Translations under genes and position numbers: made by a program
Notes under the pieces: model-generated
The model's input: the letters and a program-made list of their open reading frames with translations, nothing else
Databases searched by the model: none
What the model was told of the DNA's origin: nothing
Shown: positions 21,779 through 52,824 of the stretch, piece after piece
How the letters are laid out: the number at the start of each line of letters is the position of its first letter
Numbering within the stretch: position 1 is the first letter of the stretch
NCBI GenBank assembly: GCA_016205145.1
Contig: JACQJH010000001.1
Span: forward strand, 451,501-515,500
Direction: 5' to 3'
Origin: Candidatus Iainarchaeum sp.
Lineage (GTDB): Archaea; Iainarchaeota; Iainarchaeia; Iainarchaeales; JACQJH01
Length of the DNA: 64,000 nucleotides

Positions 21779-24700
21779 TCAGTAGATTATTTCCTTGCCT
21801 TTCATCGCGTCCAGGAAAATCGTGCGGTTCTTTCCGTCATAGCTTTTCAGCCTTCCCTCGTATGCCGGCATGTAAACGGTTTCGATTTTTTTGACGACGA
21901 TCTTGCTCCACAGCCTTTTCAACGATTCCGCCGCCTGTTCCTTTGAAACGCGCGGGGCCTCGATTGCCACGGATTCCTGCTGTTTCAATGGCAGGCCGTG
22001 CAGCGAATTCATTATGGGGTGCAGCGGGTTTGCGGGCAAATCAACGCTCTCGTTTAGCCTGAAGGAAGTTTCATTGTTCGCGGTTTCAATTTTGATTATG
22101 TTCTTGTCCGCGAGGCTTTTCAGCAGCCTCCTGAGCCTGGCCTCGTCCATGCCGGTTTTCTGCATCAATGCTTCCAGGCCGGCCTTATCCTTTTTGAGAG
22201 CGTTGAAGAGAATCGCCTCGTTTTCGTTCAGCTGCGAAAATTCCTTGAATCCGCGTGACTCCAAAAACTCGTTTCCGGCATAGTGCAGGAATTCGCCGCT
22301 CAGGGAATTGACGTATGCCTCGCCGACATTGAAAATTTCCTTGGAGCCGAAATAGTTGAATTTGAACGCGAAAACGGGAATGAATTTGAGGTAAACGCTT
22401 TCCAGCATCTCCTCCTTTCCGAAAAATCCCAAAAACTTTTTTTGCCGCATGGCATTGAACGCTTTTCTCGCGGCTTCCTCATTGACCTGCACCGGAAACG
22501 CGAGCAGTTCCGGCGGTTCCTGCACTCCGGCTGCGGTTTCAGGTTTCGGCGCCTCTTCCTTCAAAACCTTCTTTTCGATTTCCTCCGCCTTTCTTGTCGC
22601 CTCTTCGAGCTTTTTCTCCATTTCCTCTTCGTAGCCGGGCACGCTCACGGTCTGCTTTTCGGAGTCAAATTCTATTCCCTTGCGGTCGAGCTGTTCCATT
22701 ATGTCCGATGGTTCAATGTTCGCCTTGAACTTGTTGTTGACAGTGTTTATGATCTGGCGGATTTTTTCAAGCTCAATCACGCCTTCCTTTTCAATTTTGG
22801 CGAGGCACATTTCCAATGCAAGCTTTTTCGCCTTCTCCGGATCCAGGTCCTTCGACAGTTCTGCGGTTTCAGCTTCCCTGCCTTCGTGCTGTGACATTCT
22901 CGGCCTGACCCTCATTACGAACGCCCTGCTTGTCTCCTCGCGCCTGTCGCCGGTAAGCGCGGTTCCAACGGGAAGCGTTTTGATGAACGTGGGCTTCCTG
23001 AATTTTTTTGGAATCAGGGTGGGAGTCCTCTTGAAAACGGATTTTATGTCGTCGTCGAAGACAAGCTTGTGCGTCATTATTATGTCAAGCTGTGACAGCA
23101 CGTGCGAGTCGATTGCAGACGGCTGTTGTGTTGCGAAGACAAGCGAGCAGCCGGGCTGGCGGCCCTGCTTCACATATTCTATGAGCGAAGTTGTCGCAGG
23201 CGTCTTGACGTTTCCGCTCGGAATGAGCGTATGCGCCTCGTCTATGAACAGCCATGTCGGCGGAATCTCAAGCTCCATCATTTCATCCGCATCAACAGTC
23301 TTGTGCCTGCTAGCCGCCTCACGCCTTGTGGTTTTTTTGCGCGCTGCAAGAATGCGCCTGCCAAGAATGCCTATGACCAGCGCGGAAACATTGTCCTCAA
23401 GGAAAGAGGTGTCGATGATTGTGAGCTGGTTTTCCATGCTCAGTTCGCCCAGAGGTGTGCCCTTATCGGAGAAAACGCCCCAGTTTTTTGCGGCGTCAAA
23501 CCTTGAAACCAGCGCCCTGATAGAATCGGGCTTGTAGCCCTTGTCCGAGGAATGCAGTTCCTTGTCGTTTTCAAGGCAGTTTATCAGGTCGTCAAGCGTG
23601 TAATTGCCTTTTTTTCCCGCAATTTTCGGTCCTTCCTTCTGCTCGTAGCCGCTTCTCACCTTTGAAATGACCTTTTCTATGAGCAGGCCGCTCGGCGAAA
23701 ACCTTTCAATGCCGAATGTGAGGCACCAGTCGTCGGTTGAAAGCAATGAGGCGTGCATGGAAAACGTCGCGTCAAACGTTCCGCCCGGCACCTGGTCCTT
23801 GACTCCCGCAGGAATGAATACCTTGAGGTTGTCCAAACCCTGCGGTGTCAGATCCCATTTTGCAAGCATGCCAATTTCCCTTTCATCCTTGTTCGGGAAC
23901 CTCATCGACCAGAACACGCCGATGGGGTCTATCACGATTATGCCGACGTTCTTGTTTTTGTGCGCCAGCTCTTCCGCGAGAACGCCCAAAACGTAAGACT
24001 TTCCGGATCCGCGGGCACCGTTCACGAAAATGACGTGCGGGTTGAGGCTGTCCACCAATACATTGAAATCGTTGAGTTCGGAGTCCTGCACTTTTCCGAC
24101 AAACAGGCCGGCTTCCTCGCCGTACTTTTCAAACAACGACTTTTTCCTGCCGATGAACGCAATCTTTTTTTTCTCGTCAGACAATAAGCTGAGTTCGAAC
24201 CTGCCGCCTTCCTCGTCTCTCTCCTTCTCTTTCTCGGTTTTCGCCTCGACCGGGTTTGGCTTGTGCTGGTCGGAATAAATGTCCGCTTCGCGGATGCCGA
24301 CTTCCTTGTCGAACGGCAGGAGTTCATCCTTCTGCGCGTAAATGGATGCCTTCTCCAGAATGACGTCCTTTATCTGCTGCTTGTCCTCTTCCTCCAAGGC
24401 GATTTGTTCAAGCTCGTCGTTCATTTCAAGGTCGTCAGCTGCCTGCTTTTTGGCCTTGACTCCCGCCGCATCTAAATCCGTTTCCGCGCCTTTTCCCGCC
24501 CTGCCTTCGCCGGCAATGCCATTCCCGCTTTCCTTTGCCGCGGCGTTTTGGGCGGGTTTTTGTTTCGCCTGCCTTTTCCTTTTCACGCGCTTTTCATCGG
24601 GCGCCGCGCTTTCAATAACGGTTTCGTTTTCGAACCCGGCTTTTTCGGCCGGAACGCCTTTTCCTTTTTCCGCTGTTTCCGGCGCGTTTTCTTCTGTTAT

Positions 24701-24904
24701 GTTTTCGCCTTCTTCGCCCGCGCTTTTCGCCTTTTTTTCGGCTTTTTCCTTCAGTTCAATGGTCTTTTTCTTCCTTGCCTCGCGCGCCGCCTTGCGCTCG
24801 TTGCTTTCGCCCAAGACCTCGTCGAAAATGTCCTTGTCGTCCTCGACAAAAGAGGTCTCAATGACCTTCTCGTCATCGCTTTCGCTGGCTTCGGCTTCAG
24901 GCAT
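21779..24904 (-). CDS. Large (1041 aa) HerA/DUF87-type P-loop ATPase. It has a roughly 260-aa acidic/Lys-rich disordered N-terminus and a roughly 400-aa C-terminal extension containing wHTH-like segments.
   Basis: Walker A FVNGARGSGKS. Walker B with DEAH (LFIDEAHTL). A VFATQQPS sensor-like motif. The rest is low-complexity E/K-rich. Confidence 0.65.
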   Translation of the reverse strand: MPEAEASESDDEKVIETSFVEDDKDIFDEVLGESNERKAAREARKKKTIELKEKAEKKAKSAGEEGENITEENAPETAEKGKGVPAEKAGFENETVIESAAPDEKRVKRKRQAKQKPAQNAAAKESGNGIAGEGRAGKGAETDLDAAGVKAKKQAADDLEMNDELEQIALEEEDKQQIKDVILEKASIYAQKDELLPFDKEVGIREADIYSDQHKPNPVEAKTEKEKERDEEGGRFELSLLSDEKKKIAFIGRKKSLFEKYGEEAGLFVGKVQDSELNDFNVLVDSLNPHVIFVNGARGSGKSYVLGVLAEELAHKNKNVGIIVIDPIGVFWSMRFPNKDEREIGMLAKWDLTPQGLDNLKVFIPAGVKDQVPGGTFDATFSMHASLLSTDDWCLTFGIERFSPSGLLIEKVISKVRSGYEQKEGPKIAGKKGNYTLDDLINCLENDKELHSSDKGYKPDSIRALVSRFDAAKNWGVFSDKGTPLGELSMENQLTIIDTSFLEDNVSALVIGILGRRILAARKKTTRREAASRHKTVDADEMMELEIPPTWLFIDEAHTLIPSGNVKTPATTSLIEYVKQGRQPGCSLVFATQQPSAIDSHVLSQLDIIMTHKLVFDDDIKSVFKRTPTLIPKKFRKPTFIKTLPVGTALTGDRREETSRAFVMRVRPRMSQHEGREAETAELSKDLDPEKAKKLALEMCLAKIEKEGVIELEKIRQIINTVNNKFKANIEPSDIMEQLDRKGIEFDSEKQTVSVPGYEEEMEKKLEEATRKAEEIEKKVLKEEAPKPETAAGVQEPPELLAFPVQVNEEAARKAFNAMRQKKFLGFFGKEEMLESVYLKFIPVFAFKFNYFGSKEIFNVGEAYVNSLSGEFLHYAGNEFLESRGFKEFSQLNENEAILFNALKKDKAGLEALMQKTGMDEARLRRLLKSLADKNIIKIETANNETSFRLNESVDLPANPLHPIMNSLHGLPLKQQESVAIEAPRVSKEQAAESLKRLWSKIVVKKIETVYMPAYEGRLKSYDGKNRTIFLDAMKGKEIIY

Positions 24905-25016: not shown

Positions 25017-26894
25017 ATGTCCGCGTTTTCTTCTGATGAAACGGGCCAAGTCCCGGTAGCCTTGAAATTGCTCGCCGTGCTTGCCATCATCGCGTTCGTG
25101 CTTGCCCTTGTTTCATTGGGCCGGAACGGGCAGGCAAACCTTGCGGGCCGGTTTGCCGGAGCGCAAGCCGATTTTGGCGGAACATGCCTGTTCGGGGATT
25201 TTTTCTGCTTTTCCGGATCAGGCGGGGCGCAGGATTCATTCGAAGGGGATTCGGCTGTTTCCGGTTCAGGTTTCGATTATGCAAATGAGCCGGGCATGCC
25301 GGAAGCCGGCGGCGGTTTTTATGGCGGCTATGATTCCGGCGCGGCGCCGGAAGATTTTGGCGCCGGCCCGGAAACGGGTTCGGACCCTGATTATGGCGGC
25401 CAAAGAGGCGCGCCTTCCGGAAGCGGACTGCCGGAAATTTACGGTTCGGTCCAGCCGGCCGGCAGTTTTGGTGGCGTGAACGCCGGAAAAAGCGTTCTTG
25501 ACAGGGAAAGGCCGCCCGTCAGGATGCCAAAAAACCTGCCCCAGTCATCCGAAAAATCCGGTCCGAAAGCTGTTGCGGCCTCTTTTGAAAAGTATTCCTC
25601 GGACTATCCGCCAGAATGCAAAGAGCATTGCCCGTCGGTCACGGTTTTCTGTTTGCCGGAAGGCCAACTTGCGGATGAATGCGGTGAAGGCGCCACTGCC
25701 TGTGCGGATGAGGCTTCCTGTGAAATCAGCCTGCTTGATTCGGCCTGCGGGTCTGCGGGAATAAGCTCTGGAACATATCCTGCCGGTGAAATCGAGGATA
25801 TTTTGAACGATGCCAAGGAAAAGTCCGCGCCAGGGCCAGATGAGGCGGAGGACATTTGCACGCTGGAACACGAATTCAGGCACATCTGCGACCCTGATGA
25901 CAGGCCGCCCGGTTCCCGCCAGCAATGCACCGAAGTTTATGCCGAAGTCTACGAGGACAAGTGCATGAACGACTTTGCCGAGGCGAACTGCGGCGAAAAC
26001 CAGAATTGGACCGATGAGCAGTGCGGCGACCTTTGCGGCAGAATAGAGTACGGCAATTATGTGCGCAAGTGGGATGACTGCATGTGCCAGAATGCGGTTT
26101 CGGCAGAGGGCAAGTACAGCACCGGTTCAACCGGCTCATCCGACTGCTGTTCTTGCATAAGCCAGTGCACGGCCTATGGCGATAATATGGCGATGCCGCA
26201 GGCATGCATTGACAAGGGCTTTGTCAACCAGAAGGACGCCCAAAGCGCGTGCGCCGGCATTTCAAAAGCGGGAAGCGGCCACGGCTGCGACTATTGGAGC
26301 AGTGACGAGCACGACGAAGCCCAGATTTTCGGCCAGTGCGGCGGCCCCGGCATCTTTCTCGGCTGCTGTTCCGGTTACCCTTCCGGGCAAAACCCGTGGC
26401 CGGGAAACAAATGCGAAAGCTGTGACGCGCTTTTGGCATTGCAGGTTCCTGTCGGCGACGACGGAAAAACAGACTATGCCCTGCTTAAAACGCAGAGGCT
26501 TGAGGCGGTTGCAAAAGCCTGCAATGGCGCTCCCGCCAATTTCGATTCCGAGTTCAAAGACGGTTCCGATGGGCAGATATTGGAAGTTTGCGTGGTCTGC
26601 AACGACCCGTGCCGGCCCTGCTATCAGCAGGCGGGCGGAACAACATCTTCATGTTTTCCGAAAGGGCCTGCAGGCACTTGCGCCCCTGAAAAGGATGATG
26701 CCGCGCTTTTGGGCTTGATCAAAAACATTGCAAAGGGCAGCGGAGTCTGCGCAAATCCTTTGACGGCTTATATGACAAGCATGCAGGCCGGCCCGTACTG
26801 CGGCCAGGCGTGCTGTGCCGACTATAGCTGCCCACTCCCAGAATATGGCAACACCACTCCAGGCATTGCCGGATGCGTGCTCTGCGATAGTTAA
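25017..26894 (+). CDS. Membrane-anchored, extracellular, extremely Cys-rich protein (about 60 Cys) with a Gly/Asp/Ser/Tyr-rich disordered linker.
   Basis: N-terminal TM LKLLAVLAIIAFVLALVSL. A GSG/GGY-rich region. Then a dense Cys domain ending GCVLCDS. It is divergent from the HerA-like ATPase gene. Confidence 0.5.
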   Translation: MSAFSSDETGQVPVALKLLAVLAIIAFVLALVSLGRNGQANLAGRFAGAQADFGGTCLFGDFFCFSGSGGAQDSFEGDSAVSGSGFDYANEPGMPEAGGGFYGGYDSGAAPEDFGAGPETGSDPDYGGQRGAPSGSGLPEIYGSVQPAGSFGGVNAGKSVLDRERPPVRMPKNLPQSSEKSGPKAVAASFEKYSSDYPPECKEHCPSVTVFCLPEGQLADECGEGATACADEASCEISLLDSACGSAGISSGTYPAGEIEDILNDAKEKSAPGPDEAEDICTLEHEFRHICDPDDRPPGSRQQCTEVYAEVYEDKCMNDFAEANCGENQNWTDEQCGDLCGRIEYGNYVRKWDDCMCQNAVSAEGKYSTGSTGSSDCCSCISQCTAYGDNMAMPQACIDKGFVNQKDAQSACAGISKAGSGHGCDYWSSDEHDEAQIFGQCGGPGIFLGCCSGYPSGQNPWPGNKCESCDALLALQVPVGDDGKTDYALLKTQRLEAVAKACNGAPANFDSEFKDGSDGQILEVCVVCNDPCRPCYQQAGGTTSSCFPKGPAGTCAPEKDDAALLGLIKNIAKGSGVCANPLTAYMTSMQAGPYCGQACCADYSCPLPEYGNTTPGIAGCVLCDS

Positions 26895-26959
26895 GAAACC
26901 TGGCTGTGCGGCTTTGGCTTTTGGCAAGTTATCTTTAAATACTTTCCCGAAACCAATAT

Positions 26960-28657
26960 TTGCGAGAGTTATGCCAAGTGATTCACTTTGGGTTCGCGAG
27001 TGATTCTTCTTCTGTAAACCTGCATAGCTTTCAGCACGCAAAAAAAGGCTCAATCTGCCCAACATTCAAGACCGTCCAGACATCAAACAGTTTTGATGCA
27101 ACCGGGTTTTTCGCAAAACTCTCCGATTACGGCAGGAAGGAAAACTGCATTTTGTTTGAAAGCGCGGACATAGTCAAAAAGTACGGCGAGCACAGCATCG
27201 GCTCCTCTTCGCCCTGCCTGAAAGTTTCCGGAAAAGGCGCGAAATTCGGGATTCTTGCCCTCAATGCGACCGGCGAAAGGTTCCTGAAATTCCTCCACAC
27301 CCGCCTGGGCTTCTGTGACAGTGTCAAATTCGCTAAAACGAAAATCTCCGGCTCGCTCAAGCCGAAAGCGCAGGGCGTTTCCGAGGAGGAAAGGCTGAAG
27401 CTGAAAACGCACGCCGACATTCTGCGGCAGATTGCTTTCGCATTGAAGCCAGCCGGCTTGGCCGTGCCATTCCCTGCTTATGCCGGCTTGTTCGGCGCGA
27501 TTTCCTATGACTTCATAGACCAGTTCGAGTTCCTGCCGAAAAACAGGGCAGACCCGCTCAAGGACCCGGATTACGAACTGTTCTTCCTTGACAATTTGTT
27601 CCACTGCAACCATGCAAAAAAAACTCTCACTTTCGTGGCAAATGCCCTGCTCTTTGACGGCACGAAAAAAGAAATGGAAAATGAAAAAACGCGCTGCCTT
27701 GCGAAAATCGCGGAAATGGAAGCCGCGCTCGCAATGCCCCTGCCAAAAAAACGCAGGTTCAAAACGCGCGCCGGCAATGCGCAAAAAATGTCAACCGACT
27801 GCGCAAAAAAAGATTTCATCAAAACCGTTGAAAAGTGCAGGGAAAACATCCTGGCGGGCGACGTTTTCCAGATAGTGCCCAGCCGCACAAGCATCGTTCC
27901 CTATTCCGCCGAGCCGCTGGACATTTATTCCGAACTCAAAAAACTCAATCCCTCGCCTTACATGTTTTTCGTGAATGCGAAAAGCGGCATCCTGCTAGGA
28001 AGCTCGCCGGAAACGTTTTTGCGCGTGCAGGCAAAGAATGGCAAAGGCGGAAAGTATGAAAAATCCGTTGAAATCCGGCCGATTGCTGGAACGAGGCCGC
28101 GGGGCAAAACCGAAGCAGAGGACGCGGCCTTTGAAAAAGAACTCCTCTCCGATGAAAAGGAACTGGCCGAGCACACGATGCTGATCGACCTGGCGCGCAA
28201 CGACGTGGCACGCGTTTCGATTCCCGGCACAAGGCGCGTTGAAACTCCGTATCATGTCGAAAAGTATTCGCACGTCCAGCACATTGTTTCAAACGTTCTT
28301 GGCACATTGAAGCCGGAGCTTGACTGCCTGCACGCTTATCTTGCAAGCATGAACATGGGCACTTTGACAGGCGCGCCCAAGGTGAAGGCAATGGAGTTGT
28401 TGCGCCGTTATGAGAAGACAAAGCGCGGCTTTTACGGGGGAAGCGTTGCCTATATCACTCCATCAGGAGAGCTTGACTCCGCAATCGTCATCAGGAGCGC
28501 GAGGCTGAAAAACGGCAAGGCGTTTGTGCGCGCCGGCGCAGGCATTGTCTTCGATTCGGTGCCGGAAAAGGAATTCGATGAAACCGGGCGCAAGGCGCAG
28601 GCCTGCCTGAATGCAATCGAAAGCGCGAACAAAAAAGCCGGGGCGGCGGGAAAATGA
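26960..28657 (+). CDS. trpE: Anthranilate synthase component I.
   Basis: Motifs LLESA..., IRPIAGTRPRG, LIDLARNDVARV and GAPKVKAMEL. The start codon is ambiguous (TTG 26960 or GTG 26978). Confidence 0.88.
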   Translation: MRELCQVIHFGFASDSSSVNLHSFQHAKKGSICPTFKTVQTSNSFDATGFFAKLSDYGRKENCILFESADIVKKYGEHSIGSSSPCLKVSGKGAKFGILALNATGERFLKFLHTRLGFCDSVKFAKTKISGSLKPKAQGVSEEERLKLKTHADILRQIAFALKPAGLAVPFPAYAGLFGAISYDFIDQFEFLPKNRADPLKDPDYELFFLDNLFHCNHAKKTLTFVANALLFDGTKKEMENEKTRCLAKIAEMEAALAMPLPKKRRFKTRAGNAQKMSTDCAKKDFIKTVEKCRENILAGDVFQIVPSRTSIVPYSAEPLDIYSELKKLNPSPYMFFVNAKSGILLGSSPETFLRVQAKNGKGGKYEKSVEIRPIAGTRPRGKTEAEDAAFEKELLSDEKELAEHTMLIDLARNDVARVSIPGTRRVETPYHVEKYSHVQHIVSNVLGTLKPELDCLHAYLASMNMGTLTGAPKVKAMELLRRYEKTKRGFYGGSVAYITPSGELDSAIVIRSARLKNGKAFVRAGAGIVFDSVPEKEFDETGRKAQACLNAIESANKKAGAAGK

Positions 28658-29034
28658 CTGCAATTATTAACCTGTCTTTTGATGAAGCTATGGCAGTTTA
28701 TGAGGAAGTCATGCTTGCAACGGATTCGAAACCGGCTGTCAGGATTTCCGGCACTTTGGAGCACATCCTGCTTTCATGCGAGAATTCGTTTAACGGCGAA
28801 AATGATGCCTTGTTTTTCAAGGCGGCTTTTTTGCTAAAGGAAATAATTTCAAAGCACCCTTTTATGGATGGAAACAAGCGCGGCGCTCTGGCCATAACCG
28901 ATGCTTTTCTGAGCCAAAACGGACAATTTTTGGAGTTTGAAAGGCAGGATGTGGCATTTTTGGAAGAAATAGACTTCAAAAAACTGCGGGTTGGCACGAT
29001 AAAAAAATTTTTGGAGAAAAAGGTGAAAGTCTAA
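28654..29034 (+). CDS. doc: Doc (death-on-curing)/Fic-fold toxin family protein.
   Basis: The KHPFMDGNKRGALA motif matches HPFx[DE]GNKR. The protein is 126 aa. Its ATG overlaps the trpE stop (ATGA). Confidence 0.7.
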   Translation: MTAIINLSFDEAMAVYEEVMLATDSKPAVRISGTLEHILLSCENSFNGENDALFFKAAFLLKEIISKHPFMDGNKRGALAITDAFLSQNGQFLEFERQDVAFLEEIDFKKLRVGTIKKFLEKKVKV

Positions 29035-29168
29035 TGGCTCGCCAAAACCTTGTAAATTTCAATGTTCCTTTTGACTACTTTGCGGGCAACTTTCCTGAAT
29101 TTTTCGTCAGCCATATTAATATCTCTGCGATAAGTGCATTTAAACATTTGCAGGCGGCGGGAAAATGA
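29034..29168 (+). CDS. 44-aa ORF bridging doc and the next gene, with overlapping stop/start codons at both ends.
   Basis: TAATG overlap with the doc stop and ATGA overlap with the downstream start. It is not in the ORF track because it is under 60 aa. The protein is MARQNLVNFNVPFDYFAGNFPEFFVSHINISAISAFKHLQAAGK. Confidence 0.3.
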   Translation: MARQNLVNFNVPFDYFAGNFPEFFVSHINISAISAFKHLQAAGK

Positions 29169-29965
29169 GCAGCAAACAAAGAACACCGGTTTCACCCACA
29201 AGCCGGCTGAGAAATTTGATAGCCGATTCTTATTTCAGGGCGTCTCCTCGTGCCAAAACGGATTTGCGCACGGGGCTGAGTGAAGGCCACGGAGGGAGTC
29301 ATCCGGATTATCCGAACAGGGGCGCAATGAATGTTTTTGAGGTAATTGATGATGGGAAACCGTTAAGGGGCATTAGGAAAAGTTTCCAATTGGCTCTGCG
29401 TCTTGTGGCTGATTTCCATGGCCGGCCGGCAACTGGCATTTTGAGAATGGGCAAAGCAGGAATAAGGCGCAAAGTTAGCGGCGAAGCGGCACATCTTCTT
29501 CCGGGGCACGGGCTTGCCGGGCCACAATTTGTTGAGCAGAAGATTTTTGAAAATGTTCCGCCCGACAAACTTGAGCTTTTCATTGATATTGCCAGAAAAA
29601 ATAAGGGCGAGCCGTTGGCGAGGTTTCTGGAACGTGAAACGGTTTCCGGAATATATTCTGATGAGGAACGGGCAGCCCTTTGCGAAGGGTTTCCGACCGT
29701 CGGCAGGCTTTTGGCGGCCGTAAGGGCCGGTTTGCTTGTAAAGCTGACCGAACAGGCGATAGTAGAACTTGCATATGCGCACAGAGTGCAACTTCCGAAA
29801 CCGTTTACTGGCAGGCCCCTAAAAACGCACGTGATTTTGGAATATCTTGCGCCAAAATATCCTTCGCGCGAGGCGATGATTGCCGACATTGAACGGGTTG
29901 TGCAAGAAATTCCCGGGTACCAGTTTGTTGCCGAACTGGAAAGAGTTGAAGGTGAAAAAAGATGA
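29165..29965 (+). CDS. Hypothetical 266-aa protein, translationally coupled upstream to the 44-aa ORF and downstream to trpG. It is not TrpF.
   Basis: ATGA overlaps at both ends. No recognised domain. Its composition is somewhat AT-shifted relative to the trp genes. Confidence 0.4.
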   Translation: MSSKQRTPVSPTSRLRNLIADSYFRASPRAKTDLRTGLSEGHGGSHPDYPNRGAMNVFEVIDDGKPLRGIRKSFQLALRLVADFHGRPATGILRMGKAGIRRKVSGEAAHLLPGHGLAGPQFVEQKIFENVPPDKLELFIDIARKNKGEPLARFLERETVSGIYSDEERAALCEGFPTVGRLLAAVRAGLLVKLTEQAIVELAYAHRVQLPKPFTGRPLKTHVILEYLAPKYPSREAMIADIERVVQEIPGYQFVAELERVEGEKR

Positions 29966-30600
29966 GCAAAGGCAAAAGAGGAAAAGGCGCGCGAGGCAAG
30001 GGCATCAACGTTTTGTTCATCGACAACTTCGATTCTTTTACATACAATCTTGTGGACGAGTTTGCGAAACGCGGTTGCCGCGTGAAGGTTTTCCGCAACA
30101 ACATCGCCATCGCAAAAATCAAAAGCGAGGCGAAAAAGTTCAAGGCTCGGCTGATTGTCATTTCGCCCGGCCCCTCGACGCCGGAGCGCGCGGGCAATTC
30201 TATTGCGGTCATAAAAGAGTTTGCCGGAAAAATCCCGGTTTTCGGCGTTTGCCTTGGCCTGCAGGCAATGGTTGTTGCCTTCGGCGGAAAGGTTGCAAGG
30301 GCGCCTGAAACCGTGCACGGCAAGCCGTCTGACGTGGTGCATGACGGCAGAACCATTTTTGAAGGAATTACAAATCCTTTTTCGGCGGGAAGGTATCATT
30401 CCCTTTGCGCTGTCAAAGTGCCATCCTGCCTGCAGGTTTCGGCTTTGTCGGAGTCGAAAGTCGTCATGGCTTTGCGGCACGAAAAATCGGGGAAGACTTT
30501 CTGTGAGGGCGTTCAGTTCCATCCCGAAAGCATTTTAACGCAGGAAGGCGGAAAGATTATTGAAAACATAATTAAAATGGCAGAACGTGATGGCAGATGA
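29962..30600 (+). CDS. trpG: Anthranilate synthase component II (glutamine amidotransferase).
   Basis: Nucleophile elbow GVCLGLQ and the HPES motif. Confidence 0.9.
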   Translation: MSKGKRGKGARGKGINVLFIDNFDSFTYNLVDEFAKRGCRVKVFRNNIAIAKIKSEAKKFKARLIVISPGPSTPERAGNSIAVIKEFAGKIPVFGVCLGLQAMVVAFGGKVARAPETVHGKPSDVVHDGRTIFEGITNPFSAGRYHSLCAVKVPSCLQVSALSESKVVMALRHEKSGKTFCEGVQFHPESILTQEGGKIIENIIKMAERDGR

Positions 30601-31613
30601 TCCGTGACAGCCTTTCAAAACTGGTTGAGCGCAAAAGCCTTTCCGATGCGGAAATGCAGGTATGCGTTTCGGAAATGATGATGGGTGAAGCCACGCCGGG
30701 CCAGATAGGCGCGTTCCTCGCGGCAATGCGCATGAAACCTGAAAGTGCCGGGGAAGTCGCTTCCGCAATGATGGCGATGCGCAAATTCATGGTTCCGGTG
30801 AAACCCAAAACAACCGAACCGCTTTTGGACATTGTGGGCACGGGCGGCGATGCCGTGAAGACTTTCAATGTTTCGACGTGCGCGGCAATCATTGCAAGCG
30901 CTGCAGGCTGCAGGGTTGCAAAGCACGGCAACCGCTCTTTCACAAGCAAATGCGGCTCCGCGGATGTTTTGGAAGCTTTGGGCGTCAAGGTCGGCCTCGA
31001 TGCGGAAAAGTGCGCGGAAATGATTGACAGGATCGGAATAGCGTTCATGTTTGCCCCGACGCATCATCCTGCAATGAAGTTTGCCGGCCCTGTGCGCAAG
31101 GAAATCGGTTTCAGGACAATCTTCAACCTGCTCGGCCCGCTCACAAACCCGGCAATGGCGCAGACAATGGTTGTCGGCGTGTACGAAAAGGAACTGGTTG
31201 AAAAGACAGCCAATGTTTTGAAAACTGTCGGAGTGGAGCACGCGCTTGTATTGCACGGCCTGGACGGATTGGACGAGTTTTCGACTGTCGGGCAGACTTT
31301 TGTCGCCGAGCTTTCAGGCAAAAAGATTTCAACCAAGACTTTTTCGCCTAAGGATTTCGGCTTCAAAAAGGCGAAAGCGCAGGACATTGCCGGCGGTTCG
31401 GCTGAAGAGAATGCCAAAATAATTCTCGCAACCCTGAGCAACGAGGAGAAGGGAGCGAAGCTTGACATTGTCTTGTTGAATGCGGGCGCCGGCATTTTCG
31501 TGAACGGAAAGGTGAAAAGCGTGAAGGAAGGCGTTGCGGTGGCAAGGCAGGCAGTCGAATCGGGTGCTGCGCTGAAAAAGCTGGGGCAATTAAAGGAGTT
31601 GTCGAACAGATGA
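30597..31613 (+). CDS. trpD: Anthranilate phosphoribosyltransferase.
   Basis: GTGGDAVKTFNVST and the KHGNRSFTSKCGSADVLEALG motif. Confidence 0.9.
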   Translation: MIRDSLSKLVERKSLSDAEMQVCVSEMMMGEATPGQIGAFLAAMRMKPESAGEVASAMMAMRKFMVPVKPKTTEPLLDIVGTGGDAVKTFNVSTCAAIIASAAGCRVAKHGNRSFTSKCGSADVLEALGVKVGLDAEKCAEMIDRIGIAFMFAPTHHPAMKFAGPVRKEIGFRTIFNLLGPLTNPAMAQTMVVGVYEKELVEKTANVLKTVGVEHALVLHGLDGLDEFSTVGQTFVAELSGKKISTKTFSPKDFGFKKAKAQDIAGGSAEENAKIILATLSNEEKGAKLDIVLLNAGAGIFVNGKVKSVKEGVAVARQAVESGAALKKLGQLKELSNR

Positions 31614-32389
31614 CTTCCGTCAATTTTTTGGAAGGCATTGTTTCGGCTAAAAAGCGCGAGCTTTGCCTGAAAAAGGAGAAGCTTCCGTTCGAGCGCATGA
31701 AGAAAGCCCTCAATCCTGCGGAAAAGGATTTTAAGGCCGCGATCGAGGGCAAGCAGAAAATCTCCCTTGTCGCGGAAATCAAGATGGCGTCACCTTCGGC
31801 GGGAACGCTTTTGCAGGGCGCATCCCCCGTAGAGATTGCGGCGCTTTACGCAAAATACGCCGACGCGGTTTCATTTGTTTCTGACAAATCTTATTTCAAG
31901 GGCAACATCGCGGATTTGCCGAAAGTCTCATCGGTTTCCGGCCTGCCAGTGCTGATGAAGGACTTCATAATAGACGAGTACCAGATTCTGGAAGCGCGCT
32001 TTTTCGAAGCGGATGCGGTTCTGCTGATTGCGTCCATGCTGAAAACCGAAACCCTTGCCGATTTCATTTCAACCGCTGAAAGGCTTTCAATGCATTGTGT
32101 TGTAGAGGTGCATTCGCGCTCCGAACTTGACAAGGCGCTTGAGGCCGGCGCGGAAATAATCGGCATCAACAACCGCAACCTCACGGACTTTTCAATCGAC
32201 ATGAACACGACAAAAAACCTTGCGCCGTTCGTGCCCAAGAAAAAGGTCGTCATTTCGGAATCCGGTTTTTCTTCAAGGCATGATGTTGAAAAGTTCCGCG
32301 GCGAAATCGACGCAATCCTTGCCGGAACCGCCATACTCAAGGCGCAGGACAGGGAAGCAATGCTGAAGGAGCTTTCAGGAAGGCAATGA
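31610..32389 (+). CDS. trpC: Indole-3-glycerol phosphate synthase.
   Basis: EIKMASPSAG and the TIM-barrel pattern. It overlaps the trpD stop. Confidence 0.87.
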   Translation: MTSVNFLEGIVSAKKRELCLKKEKLPFERMKKALNPAEKDFKAAIEGKQKISLVAEIKMASPSAGTLLQGASPVEIAALYAKYADAVSFVSDKSYFKGNIADLPKVSSVSGLPVLMKDFIIDEYQILEARFFEADAVLLIASMLKTETLADFISTAERLSMHCVVEVHSRSELDKALEAGAEIIGINNRNLTDFSIDMNTTKNLAPFVPKKKVVISESGFSSRHDVEKFRGEIDAILAGTAILKAQDREAMLKELSGRQ

Positions 32390-32440
32390 TTGGAGAATTC
32401 GCGGATGAAGAATTCGTGAATGAAGGATATTTGAAACTGG

Positions 32441-33637
32441 ATGTTGGTTTTGATGGCTGGGATCGGCAGGTTTGGAAAGTTCGGCGGCATTTTCGTGCCG
32501 GAAACCCTTATGCCGGCGTTGGAGGAATTGCAGGCGGCGTTTTCAAAGTATTCGAAGGACAAGGCTTTCAACCGCGAGCTTGATTATCTGCTTAAAGAAT
32601 ATGCTGGCAGGCCCACGCCGTTGACTTTCGCGGACAACCTTTCAAAAATCGTCGGGGCGAAAGTTTACCTGAAGCGCGAGGACCTGCTGCATACGGGCGC
32701 GCACAAGCTCAACAATGCTTTGGGGCAGGCCCTGCTTGCAAAGCGCATGAAAAAATCCAGGCTTATTGCGGAGACCGGCGCTGGCCAGCACGGCACGGCT
32801 GTCGCGACCGCGGGTGCAAAACTGAAATTCAAGACCGAAATTTTCATGGGCGAGGTTGACATTGAAAGGCAGAAGCCGAACGTTTTCCGGATGAAACTGC
32901 AGGGGGCAAAGGTTGTTCCGGTTTCAAGCGGGGGAAAAACCCTCAAGGACGCGATCAACGAGTGTTTGCGCGACTGGGTTGCAAGTTCCGGGTACACGCA
33001 TTACCTTCTCGGTTCGGCTTTGGGCCCGCATCCTTTTCCGGGCATGGTTGCGCATTTCCAGAGCGTCATTGGCAAGGAAGCCAGACGGCAGATTTTGAAA
33101 GCCGAGGGCAGGCTTCCGGATTCGGTTGTGGCGTGCGTGGGCGGCGGCTCGAACTCAATCGGCATTTTCAGGGAATTCCTGAAAGACAAAAAGGTCGGCC
33201 TGCTCGGAGTCGAGGCCGGCGGCCTGGGCATTGAAACCGGAAAGCATGCCGCGCGGTTTGCTGACAAAAAGCTGGGCAGGCCCGGCGTTATCCACGGCAC
33301 TTACACTTACGTTTTGCAGGACAAGTTCGGGCAGATTTACAACACGCATTCCGTGAGCGCGGGCCTGGATTACAGCGCTGTCGGCCCTGAACATTCGCTC
33401 TTGAAGGAAGCGGGCAGGGCAAAGTATTCTTACGCTACTGACCGGCAGGCATTGAATGCGTTCAAGGTCTTGTCGGAAGAAGAAGGAATCATTCCGGCTT
33501 TGGAAAGCGCGCACGCTGTCGCGTACCTGCTCAACCACAAAAACGAGTTCAAGGGCAAGACCGTTGTCTTGAATCTTTCCGGCCGCGGAGACAAGGACAT
33601 TTTCCACGCGGCAAAACAACTGGGTGAGGAAATTTGA
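32441..33637 (+). CDS. trpB: Tryptophan synthase beta chain.
   Basis: [13 protein letters not shown] and the PLP-Lys motif [13 protein letters not shown]. Confidence 0.92.
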
Positions 33638-51411: not shown

Positions 51412-51531
51412 AGTACTCCTGACCCTCCCCCGAAATTCCTGATTTTTTCCCACAAAAACCATTAAAAAACTCCCTGACCAAGAATAGTTCAAGGCACCGG
51501 AATCAAAGTGCCAAAAAGCCACCATCAAATT

Positions 51532-51735
51532 GCGGGGGTGGCGGAGCGGTCTAACGCGCCAGCCTTGAGAAACCTTTTTCTTTCTTGAGAAGAAAGAAAA
51601 AGCTTCAATGCAAAATCAAAGATTTTGCATGCATCAAAAATTTGATTTTTGATGTACCAAAAAGAAAGAACCGTTCTTTGTTTCAGGCAAGCTGGTATCC
51701 GAAAGGATGCGCGAGTTCGAATCTCGTCCCCCGCG
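51532..51735 (+). tRNA. tRNA-Ser (anticodon UGA), class II, with an approximately 120-nt intron in the anticodon loop.
   Basis: Exons give a GCGGGGG/CCCCCGC acceptor, a 3-bp D-stem with an 11-nt loop, anticodon stem CCAGC/GCTGG, loop CUUGAG|A, a long variable arm, TTCGAAT, and G73. The intron is 51570-51689. Confidence 0.75.
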
Positions 51736-52640: not shown

Positions 52641-52824
52641 GCGGGGGTGGCGGAGTGGTCTAACGCGCCAGCCTGGAACTGCCCTTTCTTTTCTTTGAAA
52701 AAGAAAAGAAAGTGCAAGGTGCCCAAAGAAAAGAAAACGGGCCATTGCCCGGAAAAGGCGCTTTGCAAGGCACCAACAAGCTGGTTTCCGCAAGGAAGCG
52801 CGAGTTCGAATCTCGTCCCCCGCG
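52641..52824 (+). tRNA. tRNA-Ser (anticodon GGA), class II, with an approximately 100-nt intron.
   Basis: The exons are near-identical to the tRNA-Ser(UGA) exons. The anticodon loop is CUGGAA|A. The intron is 52679-52778. Confidence 0.75.

Follow-up and report, generated by a model that had tools for sequence, protein, structure and literature searches.

A Doc-family toxin cassette with a candidate stand-alone antitoxin peptide, inserted in the trpE/trpG overlap of an archaeal tryptophan operon

Introduction

Why would a toxin gene sit in the middle of an operon for tryptophan biosynthesis? The question is raised by a stretch of 64,000 nucleotides (nt) from Candidatus Iainarchaeum sp. (GenBank assembly GCA_016205145.1, contig JACQJH010000001.1, positions 451,501 to 515,500, forward strand), here called the window, meaning that whole stretch. 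Within it, a gene of the Doc (death-on-curing) toxin family and two further open reading frames (ORFs), of 44 and 266 amino acids (aa), separate trpE from trpG. A first-pass annotation read the Doc gene as a toxin without an antitoxin gene upstream that might tie tryptophan supply to translation, with the 44- or 266-aa product as a possible antitoxin or target. Our analysis upheld the observation and part of the interpretation, namely that an intact Doc gene without an upstream Phd lies in the operon and is probably coupled to it, and did not uphold the role in tryptophan regulation or the proposed identity of the antitoxin. We consider it likely that the interval contains a selfish mobile cassette made up of Doc and a mini-antitoxin, together with a separate orphan gene (the 266-aa ORF, hereafter gene X), both nested in the trpE/trpG overlap, and that it does not hold a regulator of the trp operon.

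Results and discussion

Insertion of the Doc segment with duplication of the operon junction

The Doc gene, the 44-aa ORF and gene X were found between trpE and trpG as described in the first-pass annotation, and the successive junctions (trpE/Doc, Doc/44-aa ORF, 44-aa ORF/gene X, gene X/trpG) read ATGA, TAATG, ATGA and ATGA. Three features were missing from the first-pass annotation: a 16-nt direct repeat, a low GC content between its copies, and a conserved minus-strand ORF of 27 aa. The repeat, GGCGGCGGGAAAATGA (repeat family D6), is perfect over 16/16 nt, with a spacing of 511 nt between the two copies (coordinates in Table 1); 0-1 exact 16-mer pairs within 5 kb are expected per window. 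The 495 bp enclosed by the copies have a GC content of 0.41, against about 0.52 in the flanks. Copy 1 corresponds to the last codons of trpE (..GCG GCG GGA AAA TGA). Copy 2 is followed by GC, with which gene X begins ATG AGC AGC, and trpG also starts with ATG AGC.

The closest relative (L056/L057) provided the empty site. Its TrpE is 81-82% and its TrpG 86% identical to those of the window, its trpE overlaps trpG directly, and it has neither Doc nor gene X. The junction there reads ..AAGGCGGCGGGAAAATGAGCCTG.., which is the 16-nt repeat followed by GC, and the uninterrupted overlap is exactly GGCGGCGGGAAAATGAGC. The trpE/trpG junctions of L058, L079 and L080 are likewise uninterrupted. The Doc gene and the spacer behind it are thus an insertion with a 16-nt duplication of the junction, and because 16 bases of the junction are duplicated, read-through of the operon is preserved. 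The simplest explanation for the entry of the cassette is a staggered cut of about 15 nt, made by whatever enzyme would have moved it. Since repeat copy 2 is followed by GC and gene X and trpG share the ATG AGC start, the simplest history places gene X in the trpE/trpG junction first and the Doc segment in the resulting trpE/X junction afterwards. A single joint insertion of Doc and gene X was rejected, as a perfect repeat copy sits between the two and not after gene X.

The arrangement was 100% identical to the window in three independent Logan assemblies (SRR12113383/4/5) and is therefore not an assembly artefact. Two of the three assemblies, L002 and L003, end inside the inserted region, at window positions 29085 (51 nt past the Doc stop) and 29803 (within gene X). 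These breaks could reflect strain heterogeneity, with occupied and empty alleles in the population.

The same cassette at other loci

Homologous cassettes were present at L004, L005, L006, L008, L007 and L029/L030, where L030 is the second contig of the L029 locus. The cassette occupies the trpE/trpG junction in L004 and lies between an X-like gene and trpG in L005. At L006 and L008 (PyrD 82% identical), the unit of Doc and the 27-aa ORF separates pyrD from pyrK, and its flanking repeats measure 15/15 nt (GGGTGCAGCGCATGG) in L006 and 13/13 nt in L008. As in the window, these repeats are built from the final codons of the gene before the insertion and the start codon of the gene after it. Where the cassette sits in an operon, the repeat ends in ATG(A/G), and Doc starts at that ATG. 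The L029/L030 and L007 cassettes lie in intergenic DNA, with an AT-rich promoter region 5' of Doc. The occurrence of the cassette at pyrD/pyrK and in intergenic DNA indicated that it is mobile and not specific to trp. The preference for operon junctions may reflect the survival of non-disruptive insertions rather than target specificity.

These placements bear directly on the idea that Doc is a dedicated, antitoxin-less regulator through which tryptophan supply controls translation, with the 44- or 266-aa product as its antitoxin or target. Such a regulator would explain why Doc adjoins trpE or trpG in three lineages (window, L004 and L005) and why gene X and Doc are neighbors in two genomes. 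Doc also overlaps the trpE stop and lacks a separate promoter at this site, so that its synthesis should follow the expression of the trp operon. However, the cassette is equally found at pyrD/pyrK and in intergenic DNA, and the trpE/trpG junction is empty in the closest relative as well as in three other relatives. Absence of the insertion from relatives had been named in the first-pass annotation as grounds against its proposal; with the insertion absent from these four, the reading of a dedicated function fails, and we regard it as quite improbable. In a weaker form of the idea, the ratio of Doc to antitoxin shifts with the operon: strong trp induction could raise Doc relative to its antidote as a by-product, and nothing points to this as the selected function.

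A conserved 27-codon ORF as candidate antitoxin

A minus-strand ORF lies 3' of Doc, convergent with it and with overlapping stop codons, in seven of eight related loci (in L007 it is cut by a contig end); the eighth, L013, carries a longer version on the Doc strand. The ORF is exactly 27 codons long in six loci, with N17 and L24 invariant: MADEKFRKVARKVVKRNIEIYKVLASH in the window, MVRKKVKELIDRIIKDNQKVYEVLVKH in L004, MVRKKVKAIIKEIFKDNSEVYKELVKH in L005, MAKSKAVGEISKMVKDNLKVYKELSKY in L006, MVEEKTVKELSKMVKDNLKVYKELAKH in L008 and MVRKKVLNLIPQIIRENLNIFRILARH in L029. Identity to the window copy is only 26-48%, yet length, start and stop are fixed. Across the six loci, differences at the first, second and third codon positions numbered 161/133/215, the third position being the most variable, and the comparison of the closest pair, L006 and L008, gave nine synonymous and eight non-synonymous codon changes. 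All six loci have a TTTAAAT or TTTATAA box at a matching register upstream of the peptide ATG, and the TTTAAA of the window is the sole such hexamer inside the trp operon. This TATA-like box would drive a leaderless or near-leaderless transcript antisense to the operon. Oligo-T runs follow the peptide stop by 10-60 nt in 6/6 loci. They were rejected as a specific sign of an antisense transcript, since T-runs are also frequent on the plus strand of this AT-rich segment and are thus only weakly informative.

The identity of the peptide was suggested by the antitoxins of 18 bacterial Doc relatives (L009-L054). These antitoxins are encoded upstream of the toxin, in the canonical order, and carry AbrB/MazE, RHH or DUF2281 N-terminal domains, and their C-terminal tails all follow the pattern ..[YF]RxxLRELAK (R-x-x-L-R-E-L-A-K). 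A profile built from the 18 tails ranked the window 27-mer first of 1673 six-frame segments, and it gave 10-19 bits for seven of nine archaeal peptides tested and 4-5 bits for L006 and L029. When profiles of the 27-mers and of the antitoxin tails were aligned with hhalign, a probability of 91.8% and a P of 7e-7 were obtained over 25 columns, with coincident C-termini. The 27-mer aligns only to the last 25 residues of canonical antitoxins, without the DNA-binding domain. The peptides are amphipathic, and against Pfam the 27-mer gave chance-level matches only. Judged by these alignments, the 27-mer is a homologue of the tail with which canonical antitoxins neutralise Doc at their C-terminus. A 22-residue C-terminal peptide of Phd (..HGNELRELADK) binds Salmonella Doc at 73 pM, blocks its kinase activity and rescues growth (PMC9207808). 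Given the tail homology and the sufficiency of that Phd peptide, we read the 27-mer as a putative stand-alone antitoxin without a DNA-binding domain.

The view that Doc has no antitoxin here, or that the 44- or 266-aa product fills that role, gave way to this minus-strand homologue of the neutralising tail, whose conservation on the other strand also argues against Doc as an antitoxin-less regulator of the trp operon. The gene directly 5' of Doc is trpE, so the toxin indeed has no upstream Phd.

Same-strand ORFs of 27-43 aa were also observed after more distant Doc genes, at L013 6246-6377 (the same as L035), L033 609-710 and L048 1549-1671. They end in the antitoxin tail motif, as ..ENMALLRELAKY, ..RKELLRKLAEEHKYLKK and ..RYRKVFENLAK, respectively, and indicate that partners reduced to the tail have arisen repeatedly in lineages with small genomes. 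Such partners of Doc, in "reverse" gene order, seem to be a wider, unannotated phenomenon.

An intact Doc gene

The 126-aa ORF carries HPFMDGNKR at residues 68-76. All residues of the Doc-type motif H-x-F-x-[DN]-[AG]-N-K-R are present, as distinct from the Fic motif HxFx[DE]GNGRxxR. The ORF matched Pfam Fic PF02661 at 38.2 bits (cutoff 24), phrog_577 "Doc-like toxin" at E = 8.8e-15 over residues 7-124, and PDB entry 9vzc, "Death-on-curing family protein", at 2.7e-4. The AlphaFold2 (AF2) model has six helices, with a predicted local distance difference test score (pLDDT) of 64.7 and a predicted template modelling (TM) score of 0.64. The P1 Doc-Phd complexes 3DD7, 3KH2 and 3K33 were within its five best Foldseek matches in the PDB, at TM 0.62-0.66 and probability 1.0. 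By motif, profiles and predicted fold, the ORF is an intact member of the Doc family. Because it overlaps the trpE stop, it is probably co-transcribed and translationally coupled, as the first-pass annotation had held.

Homologues of Doc were recovered from eight other loci at 47-68% identity. Across five homologues (46-67% identical to the window Doc) 39 residues are invariant, the whole HPFMDGNKR among them, and the six complete copies (window, L004, L005, L006, L029 and L007) are 125-128 aa long with an invariant catalytic motif at 46-68% identity. The L008 copy has T in place of the motif P (KHTFMDGNKR) and no ATG start. At its pyrD/pyrK junction (L008 5974-5990), the position of the Doc ATG reads ATA and the pyrD stop is shifted; translation of this copy would need a GTG or TTG within the repeat, and the locus exemplifies junction drift after insertion. 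The GC content at third codon positions (GC3) of the window Doc is 0.48, against 0.58-0.68 in the trp genes.

A decaying remnant, with a Doc gene that has lost its activity and a 27-aa ORF and repeat that serve no purpose, could be imagined from the TIGR01550 DOC_P1 score of 38.4 bits, which falls 0.25 below the cutoff of 38.65, and from the abundance of "solo" toxins in comparative toxin-antitoxin (TA) surveys (PMC2701414). We consider this very unlikely, because six complete Doc copies are full-length with an unchanged catalytic motif at the identities given above, and because the peptide ORF retains its length, start, stop and key residues, with synonymous change in excess. The pattern of conservation instead points to an intact Doc that is held under constraint.

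A viral vector for the cassette was also considered. A search of IMG/VR for a viral carrier returned only distant Doc relatives, with at most 32% identity over most of the protein length, and with no close relative of Doc in that database the candidate was rejected.

The 44-aa frame

The 44-aa ORF is the antisense frame of the 27-mer gene, running in frame into repeat copy 2, and its ATG is the reverse complement of the terminal His codon of the 27-mer. It had no family match in Pfam or NCBIfam, and the 44- and 42-aa plus-strand products scored negative against the antitoxin-tail profile. The first codon position is the most variable in this frame, the opposite of a coding pattern. The plus frame has no start codon in L006, and in L005 it stops about 50 nt short of the next start. 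On these grounds the ORF was rejected as a functional protein, which it probably is not; the negative tail score and the missing L006 start likewise weaken any regulatory scheme in which its product is the antitoxin of Doc.

The frame is nevertheless stop-free over the peptide-coding part in all six loci and over the whole spacer in five, and in five of the six it ends at, or at most 8 nt from, the next start. The chance of an open plus frame was 0.08-0.22 per locus, given the peptide sequences and shuffled promoter spacers. The frame may act as a translational bridge that carries ribosomes past the Doc stop (TAATG) to the following start (ATGA) and keeps the operon coupled.

Gene X and other genes in trp-operon junctions

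Only one homologue of gene X was found, at L005 3-842 (31% identity over the full length, E = 3e-30), and it came to light in the flank of a Doc locus. It lies directly 5' of the Doc cassette there, so that the gene order differs from that of the window. A search of 5.8 billion clusters returned no homologue, an exhaustive HMMER search over 1.84 billion representatives gave only a fragment of gene X itself, and Pfam, NCBIfam, PADLOC, PHROGs, a PDB profile search and IMG/VR gave no match. The gene has a GC3 of 0.47 and opens with the same two codons as trpG, ATG AGC. L056, L058, L079, L080 and L004 lack it; among the cassette loci, it is missing from five of the seven others (L004, L006, L008, L029 and L007), which speaks against gene X as antitoxin and against its part in a dedicated regulator. 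The protein was predicted to be all-helical, and its single-sequence AF2 model (pLDDT 44) was too poor for use. From these comparisons, gene X appears to be a separate, earlier insertion into the same trpE/trpG overlap, and a real but near-orphan gene. Its association with Doc, seen at two of eight cassette loci with the window counted, may be due only to a shared insertion hotspot.

No trpF was present between trpC and trpB of the window (31610-33637), and tblastn with the TrpF of L058 found nothing in the 64-kb window; the relatives L058 and L079 have trpEGDCFBA, trpF included. Gene X was considered as a stand-in for the missing trpF and rejected, as it has no similarity to TrpF and is predicted to be all-helical.

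Other genes occupy similar positions in related archaea. A 202-aa gene without a Pfam match (L058 9193-9801) overlaps both trpD and trpC, and the VDYGSG stretch of its product may correspond to a methyltransferase motif. An ORF of no assigned family stands directly 3' of trpG at L005 1972-2301. At L080 9321-10872 a HEPN/nucleotidyltransferase pair lies 3' of trpG, with an IS605 OrfB/TnpB-like gene about 5 kb upstream of trpE. It looks as if unrelated genes have landed repeatedly at trp-operon junctions in these archaea.

Proposed explanation

We propose that the 1.3 kb between trpE and trpG are the product of two successive insertions into the original stop/start overlap (..GGCGGCGGGAAAATGAGC..). 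Gene X would have entered first and taken over the ATGAGC start, and the 495-bp Doc cassette would have followed into the trpE/X overlap, duplicating 16 nt. Without a promoter of its own at this site, Doc would be made from the trp transcript by coupling to trpE; as it starts at the duplicated start codon, it would share both transcription and translation with trpE. The Doc of Phd/Doc systems is a Fic-fold kinase that phosphorylates EF-Tu; by analogy with the P1 protein, the present Doc would phosphorylate the elongation factor, perhaps aEF1-alpha in archaea, and arrest translation. The acceptor threonine of EF-Tu lies within a motif that is conserved in archaeal EF1-alpha. The 27-residue antidote would be expressed from the opposite strand, from its own TATA box on a leaderless antisense transcript, and would bind and block Doc. 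Its transcript would end inside doc, possibly adding antisense control. By duplicating the junction, the insertion would provide Doc and the displaced downstream gene each with a ribosome-binding region and a start codon, and the open plus frame over the spacer might hand ribosomes on, so that the insertion would be nearly non-polar and tolerated. In this way the cassette could survive in the stop-start overlaps of operons.

Several points weigh against this explanation. All sequence evidence comes from metagenome assemblies, and the evidence for the peptide comes from 6-8 loci, some of which are related (L004/L005 and L006/L008). The E-value of the tail profile for the window alone is modest (0.019), and the TATA hexamer is palindromic, so that its direction is not established. 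On the side of the toxin, the TIGR01550 score lies just under its cutoff, the model is only moderately confident (pLDDT 65) and the Foldseek E is about 0.06. As for mobility, no transposase or integrase was found in or next to the cassette, and terminal inverted repeats were not convincing: the repeat search gave no pair at the cassette ends, and by eye the ends agreed at 9/12 positions in the window and 6/12 in L006. The flanking repeats have decayed in L004 and L005, and L029 has none. Furthermore, the divergence of Doc roughly tracks that of the host (Doc 65% against TrpE 64% between the window and L004), which leaves room for an old insertion with precise losses.

Such a history would place one vertical insertion in the ancestor of the window, L004 and L005, followed by precise excision in L056, L058, L079 and others, and would make the cassette a resident, possibly a domesticated one. 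The direct repeats would allow precise loss, and the identity of Doc between the window and L004/L005 (65-68%) is near that of TrpE and TrpG (64-67%). However, the positions differ (trpE/X, X/trpG and trpE/trpG), and the repeat of the window is perfect, in contrast to the decayed repeats of L004 and L005. To restore ATGAGC in the 82%-identical relative, the cassette and gene X would each have had to be deleted precisely, in separate events. In addition, GC3 is still atypical, and the window is no closer to L004 than to the lineages with an empty site. When closer relatives of L004 and L005 were sought among the TrpE matches, none exceeded 65% identity. An ancient vertical insertion therefore seems unlikely to us, and the mobile Doc/mini-antitoxin cassette is preferred.

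A bolder version of the mobile-cassette explanation would make the Doc/27-mer unit a new kind of element, an "operon-junction parasite" that integrates at stop/start overlaps with a duplication of about 15 nt, has a two-strand spacer and uses the host operon as its addiction target. The roughly 15 duplicated nt would be the ribosome-binding region and start codon, by which the toxin would be plugged into the translational coupling of the host while the displaced gene would retain its signals. The spacer would carry the peptide antitoxin on one strand and a stop-free bridge frame on the other. We put this generalisation forward tentatively, as a possibility we doubt more than we believe. The same process of insertion could also have brought in gene X and the other orphan genes seen at trp-operon junctions in related archaea, as additional cargo.

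Layout of the locus and neighboring genes

The features of the interval are listed in Table 1. After trpG the window continues with trpD, trpC, trpB and trpA, and a TTTAAA box at 26934 lies 44 nt 5' of trpE.

Table 1. Coordinates of the genes, repeats and predicted elements between trpE and trpG in the window
Feature	Position	Strand	Description
trpE (anthranilate synthase component I)	26978..28657	+	559-aa gene call; Pfam Chorismate_bind 1.5e-78, Anth_synt_I_N
Direct repeat copy 1, GGCGGCGGGAAAATGA	28642..28657	+	trpE tail and stop, with the start codon now used by Doc
Doc-family gene, 126 aa	28654..29034	+	HPFMDGNKR; ATG overlaps trpE stop (ATGA)
Interior of inserted cassette, 495 bp	28658..29152		Doc, convergent candidate mini-antitoxin gene and its predicted promoter; bounded by the 16-nt repeat; GC 0.408
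27-aa ORF, candidate stand-alone antitoxin	29031..29114	-	MADEKFRKVARKVVKRNIEIYKVLASH; convergent with Doc
44-aa ORF	29034..29168	+	Antisense frame of the 27-aa ORF
TATA-like box TTTAAA	29139..29144	-	25 nt upstream of the 27-aa ORF ATG
Direct repeat copy 2, GGCGGCGGGAAAATGA	29153..29168	+	Ribosome-binding region and start codon of gene X
Gene X, 266 aa	29165..29965	+	Overlaps trpG
trpG (anthranilate synthase component II)	29962..30600	+	Pfam GATase 1.6e-54; TrpG 86% identical in L056

Directly 5' of trpE, at 25017-26894, is a cysteine-rich ORF of 625 aa that has a hydrophobic segment at its N-terminus and lacks a recorded Pfam match. A 1041-aa HerA/DUF87-type ATPase is encoded further upstream on the minus strand (21779-24904), and the synteny of HerA with trp is common to L058 and L079. 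Elsewhere in the window, the segments 51530-51735 and 52641-52824 share exact repeats of 17, 18 and 27 nt (e.g., GCGCGAGTTCGAATCTCGTCCCCCGCG). The window was assigned to a "Candidatus Diapherotrites" (DPANN, Iainarchaeia) metagenome-assembled genome, and the tRNA with an intron that it contains is in keeping with an archaeon. The second segment is this intron-containing tRNA, called by Rfam, which the repeats tie to a second copy about 1.1 kb upstream; that upstream copy (51530-51735) was called by neither ARAGORN nor Rfam. The repeats are spaced at 1109 and 1089 nt between the two tRNA copies, which indicates a different intron length.

Implications

If confirmed, the cassette would offer a natural Doc antitoxin cut down to the bare neutralising helix, the same principle as that of the synthetic Phd peptides developed as Doc inhibitors. 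Its toxin would be driven by a host biosynthetic operon and its antidote by an antisense promoter, so that classical autoregulation would be impossible, and some other control of the balance between toxin and antitoxin would have to be sought. The locus is also a clean case of a cassette without mobility genes entering an operon at a stop/start overlap and leaving it unbroken, in DPANN archaea with very small genomes, and it points to a way in which operons may acquire selfish or orphan genes as wired-in members. For annotation, the antitoxin of a "solo toxin" may escape gene callers through its small size and its place on the opposite strand, masked by a longer antisense ORF.

Comparison with known systems

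In the literature searched, whose coverage was incomplete, neither a convergent Doc antitoxin made up of the tail alone nor the insertion of a TA cassette into stop/start overlaps with duplication of the junction was found described. Phd/Doc of phage P1 and of Salmonella has a toxin of the same size (126 aa) with the H-x-F-x-D-G-N-K-R motif and the Doc fold, and the candidate antitoxin matches the C-terminal neutralising tail of ordinary Doc antitoxins. Unlike in Phd/Doc, the antitoxin would consist of the tail only (27 aa), without a DNA-binding domain, which would make classical autorepression impossible. Its gene lies downstream of the toxin on the opposite strand, with overlapping stop codons and a predicted promoter of its own, in contrast to the canonical phd-doc operon, and the toxin has no promoter at this site and would be expressed from a host biosynthetic operon. 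By analogy, the cassette probably works like canonical phd-doc at the neutralisation step.

Convergent toxin and antidote genes with overlapping 3' ends recall par of pAD1, a convergent, antisense-regulated type I TA locus. With this geometry the antidote transcript must run antisense into the toxin gene. Unlike in par-like loci, the antidote frame of the present cassette is conserved as a protein and is homologous, by the alignments above, to the tails of protein antitoxins; any effect at the RNA level would come in addition.

Insertion sequences, miniature inverted-repeat transposable elements and casposons share with the cassette a short target duplication that flanks a discrete segment, together with an empty site in a relative. 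Casposon duplications measure 14-15 bp, which the 13-16 nt observed here resemble; the resemblance is a lead rather than a test. Unlike these elements, the 495-bp unit contains no transposase or casposase, only Doc and the 27-mer, so that its payload would be a complete TA pair; in gene X, too, no domain was recognised.

In its genomic behavior the cassette comes closest to the "operon insertion" of restriction-modification units and other addiction modules, which was described by the Kobayashi laboratory in glutamate synthase and histidine operons and was proposed to enforce maintenance of the operon (PMC4615327). In both cases an addiction-type module without mobility genes lies on the same strand between linked biosynthetic genes. 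The present case differs in that the module is a TA pair and the host an archaeon, and in that the insertion falls exactly in a stop/start overlap, with a duplication of 13-16 nt that rebuilds the junction on both sides.

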